In this document: positions 1,658 to 38,350 of the stretch, piece by piece | Numbering within the stretch: the stretch's first letter is position 1 | Layout: every line of letters starts with the position of its first letter | DNA from: a virus | Virus record (IMG/VR): IMGVR_UViG_3300012943_000019 | Coordinates: 1-38,747 of that record | DNA length: 38,747 nt | Direction: 5' to 3' (one strand) | Position numbers and translations under genes: made by a program | Notes under the pieces: model-generated | The model's input: the letters and a program-made list of their open reading frames with translations, nothing else | Databases searched by the model: none | What the model was told of the DNA's origin: nothing

Positions 1658-1692
1658 TTTCGACCTTTCCGCCTCGGGTTCATTCCCTTGGC

Positions 1693-1727
1693 TGACTTCC
1701 TAAAGGTAGTCAAACATTTCCAATAAA
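1693..1727 (-). promoter_or_regulatory. Conserved 35-nt hairpin-containing element, copy A, 35 nt upstream of ATG 1657
   Basis: Minus-sense TTTATTGGAAATGTTTGACTACCTTTAGGAAGTCA closely matches the copy at 38304..38338. It contains the inverted repeat TGACTaCC-TTTA-GGaAGTCA. Confidence 0.5.
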
Positions 1728-1858
1728 ACATGAGGAAAGAGAAGAAAGGTGAAAATAATTTTGGGTGGCGATATTGGGGTAAAAACGCGGGGTACGGCGT
1801 AATATGACATTTCCTCATTTTCTTACACACAAACCTTGCGGGTGAGGTTATATTGTAC

Positions 1859-1915
1859 TTGCGGGGCCGTTGGTACGCCAGCGGTTGTGGGAGGGGTAGC
1901 CCCACGAACCCGCAA
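1859..1915 (+). promoter_or_regulatory. Candidate structured leader RNA domain (closing helix plus two hairpins)
   Basis: TTGCGGG (1859..1865) pairs with CCCGCAA (1909..1915). Inside are CGTTGG-TACG-CCAGCG (1868..1883, UNCG-type loop) and GTGGG..CCCAC (1887..1905). TATATT at 1849..1854 would place a transcription start near 1861. Confidence 0.3.
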
Positions 1916-2142
1916 CTTTCTATCCCAAAGACATAGACCACCTATAGCGGTGGTCGCGGGGTTTAGGCGACCTCGATGAAGTGGGCTCTGCACTAGCTAC
2001 CTCCTAGATGCACTCGGCTTGGCACGAAGGACCGTACTCCCTTGTCGTATGGGGAGGATAAAAACCGGGTGGTGGCTAACCCTCTGCTGGTGGATACGAT
2101 GGGAGCGAAGTGATGGCCTTGAAGTGAACTCAGGTTGTGACG

Positions 2143-2206
2143 GAGATACCCCCTATTCGGCAAGAACCTGTTAAAAAGCGGGTGTTTGTCGGGTAGGGGG
2201 AGTCTC
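2143..2206 (+). promoter_or_regulatory. Long imperfect stem-loop in the leader of the rightward operon
   Basis: GAGATACCCCCTA (2143..2155) pairs with TAGGGGGAGTCTC (2194..2206): 12 pairs and 1 mismatch. An inner helix joins 2158..2163 and 2186..2191. Confidence 0.35.
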
Positions 2207-2243
2207 GTTCAAACCTCTCTTGAATCTAGGTTGTGAGGGGAAA

Positions 2244-3967: not shown

Positions 3968-5341
3968 ATGGCCTTTAAGCCCACCCCCAAGCAAGACGAA
4001 GCAACGGCCCTAATCGCTGGGCCTGCCCGTCATATCCTGCTTGAGGGCGGCAGTAGAAGTGCAAAAACTTTTGAAATGTGCTGGGCTATCGCTACCCGGG
4101 CTATGATGGCCCCTGGCTCCCGTCATTGCATCCTTCGCTACCGCTTCAATCACGTCATCACCTCCATTTGGTACGACACCTTCCCAAAGATGATGAAGAT
4201 TTGCTACCCGGGGGTTAAGTACGAAGAAAACAAGTCCAACTGGTTTATCTCTCTACCCGGTGGGTCTGAGATATGGTTCGGTGGCCTAGACGATAAGGAG
4301 CGTACCGATAAGATCCTTGGTAACGAATACGCCACGATGGGTTTTAACGAGTGCTCCCAGATGAATTTCAACGCTGTCGAGACGGCCCTTAGCCGCTTGG
4401 CCCAGCGTGTCGATTACAAGGACGCCCGCACGGGTGAGACTAAGACCCTGCGCCTTAAGGCCATTTACGATCAGAACCCGGGCAATAAAGGTCACTTCAC
4501 CTATCAGATTTGGCACAAGGGTCTAATGCCTGAGGGGGCGGATAAAGGCAAGCCCTTGCGCAATCCTGAGAACTACGCCAAACTCTTAATGAACCCGGTG
4601 GACAATCAGGAAAACATTGCCCCCGAGTACCTAGAGGAAATGGAAGGCAAGAGTGAGCGCCAGAAGCGGCGTTTTCTGCGTGGTGAGTATGCCGACGACA
4701 ACCCGAACGCCTTGTTTGCTGAGGCCACGGTAGATCGCAACCGGGTGTTAGACGGTAAACTCCCCGAGATGGTGCGTATCGTGGTTGCGTGCGATCCTTC
4801 CGGCTCTGGCGACACCGACAACGCGGACAACGACGCTATCGGCATTGGGGCTATGGGGCTAGGGACGGACGGCAAGGGCTACGTCCTTCAAGACAACACG
4901 GTCAAGGCTGGCCCGGCTACATGGGGGCGGGTGGTGGTCACGACCTACGACAGCCTTAGGGCAAACGTGGTTGTTGGTGAGAAGAACTTCGGCGGGGCTA
5001 TGGTCGAGTTTACTATCCAGACCGCCGCTAAAGAGCAGGGGCTTAGGCCCGTCCCCTTCAAGTACACGGTTTCCAGCCGGGGCAAGATGCTCCGGGCTGA
5101 GCCTATCGCTGCCCTCTACGAGCAGAACAAGATTTGCCACGTGGGCTACTTCCCTGAGCTTGAGGATGAGATGTATGCCATGAGCACCAACGGCTATACC
5201 GGCAATGGCAGCCCTAACCGCCTTGACTGGATGGTATTCGCCGCTAATGAATTGTTCCCGGGGATTGTTAAAGACGACACGCCGAAAGACTTTAAGAACG
5301 CCTCTAACGGATACTCTAGAAGAATGGGATTTGCACGATGA
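3968..5341 (+). CDS. terL: Terminase large subunit
   Basis: 457 aa with an N-terminal P-loop-like GGSRSAKT and an acidic nuclease half (VACDPSGSGD...). Position lies between the small terminase and the portal. Confidence 0.85.
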   Translation: MAFKPTPKQDEATALIAGPARHILLEGGSRSAKTFEMCWAIATRAMMAPGSRHCILRYRFNHVITSIWYDTFPKMMKICYPGVKYEENKSNWFISLPGGSEIWFGGLDDKERTDKILGNEYATMGFNECSQMNFNAVETALSRLAQRVDYKDARTGETKTLRLKAIYDQNPGNKGHFTYQIWHKGLMPEGADKGKPLRNPENYAKLLMNPVDNQENIAPEYLEEMEGKSERQKRRFLRGEYADDNPNALFAEATVDRNRVLDGKLPEMVRIVVACDPSGSGDTDNADNDAIGIGAMGLGTDGKGYVLQDNTVKAGPATWGRVVVTTYDSLRANVVVGEKNFGGAMVEFTIQTAAKEQGLRPVPFKYTVSSRGKMLRAEPIAALYEQNKICHVGYFPELEDEMYAMSTNGYTGNGSPNRLDWMVFAANELFPGIVKDDTPKDFKNASNGYSRRMGFAR

Positions 5342-33387: not shown

Positions 33388-33402
33388 TCAAAAACCCCAT
33401 AG

Positions 33403-38289: not shown

Positions 38290-38303
38290 TTTGACTCCTT
38301 GTT

Positions 38304-38338
38304 TGACTTCCCTAAAGGTAATCAATCCTTCCAATAAA
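38304..38338 (-). promoter_or_regulatory. Conserved 35-nt hairpin-containing element, copy B, 14 nt upstream of ATG 38289
   Basis: Minus-sense TTTATTGGAAGGATTGATTACCTTTAGGGAAGTCA. The C-to-U change in the stem keeps pairing (U-G). Confidence 0.5.
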
Positions 38339-38350
38339 TGTTGGAGATTT

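Follow-up and report, generated by a model that had tools for sequence, protein, structure and literature searches.

Positions 1859 to 2243 of the window, by which we mean the whole stretch of 38,747 nucleotides of viral DNA analysed here, carry on the plus strand a conserved structured RNA that is a real, undescribed family with four known members. The element is non-coding, lies on the late-operon strand between the promoter and the first late gene, and is built of covarying helices. It is a new sequence family of a general kind that is already known, the structured late-operon leader. We infer that 1859-2243 is transcribed, and that it is probably a cis-acting leader RNA of the rightward late operon, where it would most likely control the expression of the packaging, head, tail and lysis genes.

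The RNA occupies the single divergent junction of the genome

The window is a complete virus record of 38.7 kb with a terminal overlap and, judged from the genes that it carries, is a P22-like podophage. Small and large terminase genes are present in the window, and portal and coat genes of the P22 type were seen in its relatives. The minus arm encodes a primase-helicase and several HNH nucleases, and the rightward late genes comprise small genes, terS, terL, portal, coat, tail and lysis genes. Since the leftward genes start at 1657 and the rightward genes at 2244, the region 1658-2243 is the single divergent junction of the genome. As a previous sequence-only reading had claimed, this gap is also the largest ORF-free stretch of the genome; the second-largest, at 33388, measures about 250-390 bp, a size that varies with small-ORF calls. 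All three plus frames of the gap are interrupted by stops (2-9 per frame), and all the repeats and hairpins listed in the previous reading were found where it had placed them. The plus-strand fold of 1658-2243 was better than that of 100 out of 100 dinucleotide shuffles (z -3.4), and the minus-strand fold was weaker (z -1.9, dinucleotide shuffles). The gap consists of two parts, a divergent promoter/operator region (1658-1858) and the structured plus-strand RNA (1859-2243).

Beside the junction, the minus strand carries two paralogous small genes resembling phrog_1273 (481-807 and 1400-1657). A stretch of 28 nt is identical in the two (592-619 and 1592-1619), and about 40 nt are nearly identical.

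Three relatives carry homologues of the RNA at the same junction

The closest large terminases among 5.8 billion proteins were 57-77% identical to that of the window. The leader span was taken from the leftward genes to the first rightward gene in those contigs that include this junction, and 8 of the 11 fetched TerL relatives have an ORF-free leader of 450-1050 bp at this place. Long ORF-free leaders thus precede the late genes in L082, L083, L084, L085, L089, L245, L247 and L301. RNA homologues were identified at the same divergent junction in three of them, at 1822-2203 in L084, 3139-3475 in L085 and 4536-4890 in L247, and the TerL proteins of these three phages are 63-76% identical to that of the window. 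The four phages have only TerS, TerL and structural genes in common; as the small genes flanking the junction are unrelated among them, the non-coding element is better conserved than its coding neighbours. The RNA is still kept in L247, whose TerS belongs to a different family (Sf6 type).

The four RNAs share one order of elements. The 5' part reads TAnnnT, a spacing of 6-7 nt, the invariant GCGGGGCCG, variable hairpins, AACCCGC, GACAU (missing from the L247 RNA), a hairpin and CGGGG...CCUCG. The 3' part continues with a variable middle (UUGYCGU, GGAUACGAUGGG), UUGAAG plus AACUCAGG, a long hairpin, AAUCUNGG and the ribosome site.

A covariance model built on a single sequence, window 1859-1975 (R1), matched exactly L084, L085 and L247, at full length (E-values of 3.5e-9, 2.3e-8 and 2.7e-4, respectively), with no further match in about 1 Mb of TerL-relative loci. 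It should be noted that L247 was missed by the default Infernal filters; it was seen by eye and confirmed with the filters off. A second model built on the four sequences (R2) gave no match in 50 whole IMG/VR contigs and none in the leaders of L082, L083, L089, L245 and L301, which are therefore different RNAs. The leaders of L089 (around 1755-1775) and L245 (around 518-538), both without the RNA described here, have the sequence TTCCGGGTTAyTGCA in common and may be members of a second family of leader RNAs located at this junction.

Searches beyond these loci were negative. When IMG/VR, JGI metagenomes and GTDB genomes were scanned for the exact patterns of P1, GACAU and P5, the only matches lay in coding DNA and were attributable to chance; BLASTN of 1400-2600 against GenBank phages had no match, and the gap itself, compared by BLASTN and nhmmer with 80 TerL-relative loci of IMG/VR, had none either. 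Rfam 15, whose families include GOLLD, ROOL, riboswitches, T-box, tmRNA, RNase P and 6S, had no match in the whole window at the gathering score, and at E-values up to 10 the window and the L084 and L085 copies gave only noise, with no family common to them. ARAGORN reported nothing in the window. The copy of the window is the only one in IMG/VR; a large survey of structured RNAs in that database depended on multiple homologues (PMC10690425).

The 5' domain is a covarying three-way junction followed by two hairpins

The RNA as a whole and the elements of its 5' domain are as follows.

1859..2243, plus strand: whole conserved structured leader RNA, about 370-385 nt, with homologues in L084, L085 and L247
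1860..1914, plus strand: 5' three-way junction P1-P3, with P1 at 1860-1865/1909-1914
1867-1873/1878-1884, plus strand: P2, UACG loop, three pairs changed on both sides
1887-1891/1901-1905, plus strand: P3, 9-nt loop AGGGGUAGC, three pairs changed on both sides
1930..1975, plus strand: GACAU junction, P4 and P5, with P4 at 1936-1942/1949-1955
1957-1961 with 1971-1975, plus strand: P5, CGGGG with CCUCG, and a sixth pair U1962-A1970 in the window

P1 is invariant in the four RNAs, and the five P5 pairs, one of which is a G.U, are identical in all of them. P2, P3 and P4 show wholesale sequence change with retention of pairing: the P4 stem is different in each of the four RNAs (GACCACC, GCCA, CCC and TGAC) and remains paired in each. 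P2 is capped by a UNCG loop in the window (UACG) and in L247 (UUCG). The alignments of the four RNAs were fitted to the structure by model or by hand. With the model-based alignment of the 5' domain, standard pairs occupied 97% of the cells compared to 36-55% when the partners were slid; nine pairs were changed on both sides compared to 4.3 +/- 1.5 in shuffles (2 of 500 reach nine), and the covariation score was 0.204 compared to 0.077 in shuffles (none of 500 as high). RNAalifold independently re-predicted P1-P5, with 10 compensatory pairs.

These results modify two features of the previous reading. The two hairpins that it described within a 57-nt domain closed by TTGCGGG (1859-1865) and CCCGCAA (1909-1915) are present, but they do not form a free-standing unit, being the P1-P3 part of a fold of about 370 nt. 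Likewise, the hairpin GACCACC-tatagc-GGTGGTC at 1936-1955 is P4 and covaries, whereas the competing pairing GGTCGC/GCGACC proposed for it is not conserved, the conserved neighbour being P5. Four segments of 1859-1975 are invariant (GCGGGG, CCCGC, GCGGGG and CCUCG). Their alternative pairing (second with third, first with fourth) is possible but 1-7 kcal/mol less stable, and is no more than a weak idea.

The 3' half contains a pseudoknot and closes beside the ribosome site

Because MAFFT misaligned the RNAs, results for the 3' half rest on a hand alignment of the four sequences anchored on conserved blocks. The following elements were assigned.

1989..2012, plus strand: P6 hairpin, AGCU loop/stem motif conserved in the manual alignment
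2037-2041/2052-2056, plus strand: P8 hairpin with conserved loop UUGUCGUAU, stem covarying in all four RNAs
2092..2105, plus strand: strand GGAUACGAUGGGAG, pairing with a 3' motif (P7b), the P8 loop (PK1) and the 3' tail (P7c)
2044-2050 with 2094-2100, plus strand: pseudoknot PK1, the 9-nt loop of P8 with the strand AUACGAU
2113-2119/2132-2138, plus strand: P10 hairpin with conserved UUGAAG and AACUCAGG, stems paired
2141..2207, plus strand: P11, a long hairpin of about 29 bp in the window and 13-29 bp across all four RNAs
2215..2243, plus strand: 3' tail, with CUCUC (P7c 3' strand), the conserved AAUCUAGG at 2223-2230 and the Shine-Dalgarno sequence GAGGGG at 2235-2240, followed by the ATG at 2244

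In a diagonal search, the most covariation was displayed by the P8 stems (CUCCC/GGGAG, CGC/GCG, ACCUG/CAGGU and GCACC/GGUGU). The PK1 strand ranked first as a complement of the P8 loop among the 306-351 positions of each RNA, in all four RNAs; the two form 7-9 canonical pairs within their own RNA, a number that drops when the loop of one lineage is matched with the strand of another. P7c covaries as well (GGGAG/CUCUC, GGGGC/GCCCU and GGGA/UUCC), and a GGA beside the PK1 strand pairs with a UCU inside AAUCUAGG. As the flanks of the PK1 strand pair with the 3' tail, the fold is closed next to the ribosome site. The P10 stems AUGGCCU/AGGUUGU, GACGUU/GACGUU and AUGUUG/CAACAU pair with up to three G.U, and the L247 stem is weak.

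The stem at 2143-2206 noted previously is present; it corresponds to P11 and is kept in all four RNAs, where it measures 29 bp (window), at least 17 bp (L084) and 13-14 bp (L085 and L247). In the window, this stem alone reaches -41.8 kcal/mol. Since the G-run on its 3' side is paired to a C/U run that varies, P11 works only as RNA and on this strand; it is not an intrinsic terminator because no U-tract follows. In each of the four RNAs, the motif AAUCUNGG precedes the first late start codon by 8-37 nt. In minimum-energy folds the Shine-Dalgarno sequence is paired, with partners that differ from phage to phage. Altogether, about a dozen helices (P1-P6, P8-P11 and a three-part P7) and one pseudoknot are proposed, with the conserved nucleotides in loops and junctions.

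Two candidate interactions were discarded. The hairpin at 1989-2012 does present ACCTCCT in the window as had been noted, but P6 loops differ between the phages and this display is not conserved, which rules out an anti-Shine-Dalgarno decoy. A pairing of AAUCUAGG with the CUAG of P6 was ruled out since the changes in L085 hold no single register.

Conservation reflects a plus-strand RNA

The check by covariation in relatives that the sequence-only reading had put forward is borne out, as P2, P3, P4, P8 and P11 keep their pairing through compensatory changes. Plus-strand folding gave z-scores of -3.3, -2.2, -3.1 and -1.4 for the four RNAs, more negative than those of the minus strand in three of the four, the exception being L084 (-2.2 compared to -2.3). 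The G.U pairs, the weaker minus-strand folds of three RNAs and the stops in all frames together indicate a plus-strand RNA and neither a DNA signal nor a gene.

A DNA-level element without any functional RNA, such as a replication origin, a pac or cos site or operators only, might be expected at the sole divergent junction of the genome, and the repeats and inverted repeat within 1658-1858 would suit it. Such an element is nevertheless very unlikely to account for 1859-2243: the conserved pairs are strand-dependent and include G.U, and both G.U pairs and C-to-U changes opposite G would be mispaired in a hairpin of DNA or of the opposite strand. Moreover, the conservation starts exactly after the -10 box, and L247 retains the RNA in spite of its Sf6-type TerS. 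The pac or ori alternative of the previous reading does not fit these data.

Small protein-coding genes missed by gene calling are an even poorer explanation and are scarcely credible. ORFs of 47-56 codons do exist in the gap, but the three plus frames of all four RNAs contain 2-11 stops with no common frame, tblastx matches are only short and marginal and track the conserved nucleotides, and the variation consists of indels and whole-hairpin replacement.

The RNA begins downstream of a conserved -10 box

The region upstream of the RNA comprises the following features.

1658..1858, no strand assigned: divergent control region (leftward 5'UTR, operator-like repeats, back-to-back promoters), with no sequence conserved among relatives
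1683..1730, minus strand: element of about 45 nt with a hairpin in the leftward 5'UTR, with a second copy at about 38290-38340 found by local alignment
1730-1738 and 1810-1818, no strand assigned: perfect 9-bp inverted repeat ATGAGGAAA / TTTCCTCAT, possible operator pair
1801..1809, minus strand: candidate leftward extended -10 TGTCATATT, read from the sequence, which failed a strict consensus scan
1849..1854, plus strand: -10 box TATATT of the rightward late promoter, without a -35, kept in relatives

No promoter of the gap passed a sigma-70 consensus scan, and the -10 call therefore rests on conservation in the relatives. Each of the four phages has a TAnnnT box (TATATT, TATACT, TATCTT and TAGTTT) 6-7 nt before GCGGGG, and this constant distance to the invariant GCGGGGCCG supports the previous proposal of a plus-strand RNA starting just after TATATT. 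Near-consensus sigma-70 promoters occur in relatives with other leaders, L083 (about 4290-4330), L245 (about 450-480) and L301 (about 4620-4655); they consist of TTGACT, TTTACA and TTGACA, a spacing of 16-17 nt, and TATCTT, TATATT and TAGATT, respectively. By contrast, the four phages carrying the RNA have a -10 box only.

Upstream of this box, the right arm of the 1730..1818 inverted repeat adjoins the candidate leftward extended -10. The repeat is by itself unremarkable, because a perfect 9-bp inverted repeat is also present in 85 of 500 shuffles (17%). Purine-rich repeats can be read directly at 1733-1756, and the relatives carry repeats of their own in the place of 1658-1858. L247 has 3.5 tandem copies of GGACATTTAGC at 4430-4490, about 50-100 nt upstream of the promoter of the RNA, and the corresponding place in L084 is taken by several copies of ATTGAAAG; both sets resemble operator or iteron sites that are specific to each phage, next to an RNA that the phages share. 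The two minus-strand copies of the 45-nt element, TTTATTGGAA...TTGAyTACCTTTAGGrAAGTCA...CAAGG, align locally with a score of 55 and contain the same hairpin. They precede two separate leftward operons and could be a shared 5'UTR or operator element.

Possible roles of the leader in late gene expression

A cis-acting role is in agreement with the start of the RNA, which in each of the four phages coincides with the predicted start site, with the position of its last helices, which adjoin the Shine-Dalgarno sequence, and with the lack of any plus-strand terminator between 1859 and 2244 that would separate the RNA from the genes. According to this proposal, a weak promoter consisting of a -10 box only would start RNA polymerase at the head of the leader. 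The nascent leader would then fold into the P1-P3 junction, P4, P5, the central domain held by PK1, P11 and the closing helix at the ribosome site, and the folded nascent RNA would act in cis on the machinery reading the late operon, deciding whether the polymerase proceeds productively into 20 kb of tightly coupled genes.

As to how it would do so, the single most likely mechanism, which we put forward tentatively, is an RNA-only read-through of pauses, Rho or intrinsic termination, put-like in action and not homologous to put. In line with the previous reading, no Q-type antiterminator was detected in six-frame searches with PF06530, PF03589 and PF06323 (no match at E-values up to 1), and no recognisable regulator appeared among the PHROGs matches. 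The late arm has 30 terminator-like sites compared to 22 +/- 5 in shuffles; as they are not enriched, a need for antitermination is not shown. Ranking after read-through, and somewhat unlikely, is a gating of the first ribosome site by the fold, and thereby of Rho polarity. Against a simple gating of this kind, both the partners of the Shine-Dalgarno sequence and the first late gene differ between the phages. More speculative still is the idea that the fold is a new class of large functional RNA that turns on the late genes by itself. Such an RNA could be a riboswitch-like sensor or bind RNA polymerase or the ribosome directly; it would replace a protein late activator or antiterminator in this lineage, and the unrelated leaders of sister phages could be alternative solutions to the same task.

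Further points against a cis leader are that it is larger and more complex in its tertiary structure than known cis antiterminators and most riboswitches, and that L089 carries a tRNA-His gene (2009-2082) inside its 947-bp ORF-free leader, where the window has the structured RNA, which hints at stable-RNA cargo. It is thus conceivable, although we regard it as the less probable course, that the fold is released from the late transcript by cleavage, at the P11 duplex for instance or close to AAUCUAGG, and then acts in trans, as a free RNA or as an RNA-protein scaffold, with a part in taking over the host, in anti-defence or in virion assembly; the leader position would then merely provide a promoter. 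The number of helices, the pseudoknot and the conserved nucleotides in loops and junctions are compatible with such a product, as is its retention while the downstream gene differs. The tRNA-His gene of L089 demonstrates that leaders at this position can hold processed stable RNAs, and the P11 duplexes of the window and of L084 are of sufficient length for RNase III. By contrast, those of L085 and L247 reach just 13-14 bp. The RNA is not followed by a terminator or by any recognisable processing site, there is no helix connecting its two ends, the fold extends right up to the ribosome site, and no co-occurring partner protein was found in the fetched flanks.

Comparison with known systems

The cis-acting leader that we favour recalls the putL and putR RNAs of HK022, which are cis-acting, factor-independent processive antiterminators; they are about 70 nt long, consist of two stem-loops arranged as a V with a triplex, and bind the beta' zinc-binding domain of RNA polymerase (PMC9378689). 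In both cases a structured nascent RNA, here a predicted one, directly follows a phage promoter and opens a long operon, in a phage without a recognisable protein antiterminator, and a cis action is proposed; a put-like function of the RNA is possible. Unlike put, which serves the early operons of a lambdoid phage, this RNA heads the late operon and combines a closed three-way junction with a pseudoknot and a long hairpin. True membership of the put family, as a two-hairpin RNA of about 70 nt binding the same domain of the polymerase, is highly improbable. The two hairpins near the 5' end, directly after the promoter, and the failure to find a Q or N protein would be in its favour, but P2 and P3 are enclosed by the invariant P1 and are part of the fold of about 370 nt. 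Furthermore, R2 run with filters off on HK022 24000-40751 had no match at PL or PR (E above 1); its sole match, of 14 bits, fell on PR' promoter DNA and collapses P1-P3. Rfam holds no put family to scan with. The put-like two-hairpin unit of the previous reading is thus not of the put family, the RNA being five times larger and of another architecture.

Late control of the lambda type relies on Q, on PR' with qut, on tR' and on a terminated 6S leader RNA. Here, too, a leader separates the late promoter from the first late gene, and related phages exchange this leader as a cassette. Unlike lambda, this phage has no Q gene and no leader terminator, its promoter lacks a -35, and its leader is a conserved tertiary fold and not a short terminated transcript.

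GOLLD and ROOL are also large, multi-helix, pseudoknotted phage non-coding RNAs, but they measure about 580-800 nt compared to 370 nt here, and the present RNA has no Rfam match and adjoins a ribosome site. A likeness to the tRNA-adjacent RNA cassettes of phage late leaders comes from the tRNA at the same place in one relative, whereas the four members have no tRNA neighbour. Finally, as in the riboswitch-type or translation-gating leaders of Proteobacteria, a 5'UTR fold ends in a helix beside or over the Shine-Dalgarno sequence and has four invariant segments able to pair alternatively. It differs from riboswitches in that no ligand class or known aptamer matches and in being far larger than usual aptamers, and from gating leaders in that the partner occluding the Shine-Dalgarno sequence is not conserved.

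To our knowledge, the timing of the 20-kb morphogenesis operon is poorly understood in tailed phages without Q-like or sigma-like late regulators, and we know of essentially one phage system of RNA-only elongation control, HK022 put. The leader RNA described here is kept while the neighbouring small genes change, and its covarying pseudoknot makes the structure testable by compensatory mutants. A second, much larger and unrelated late-operon RNA would be a tractable candidate for RNA-only late control.
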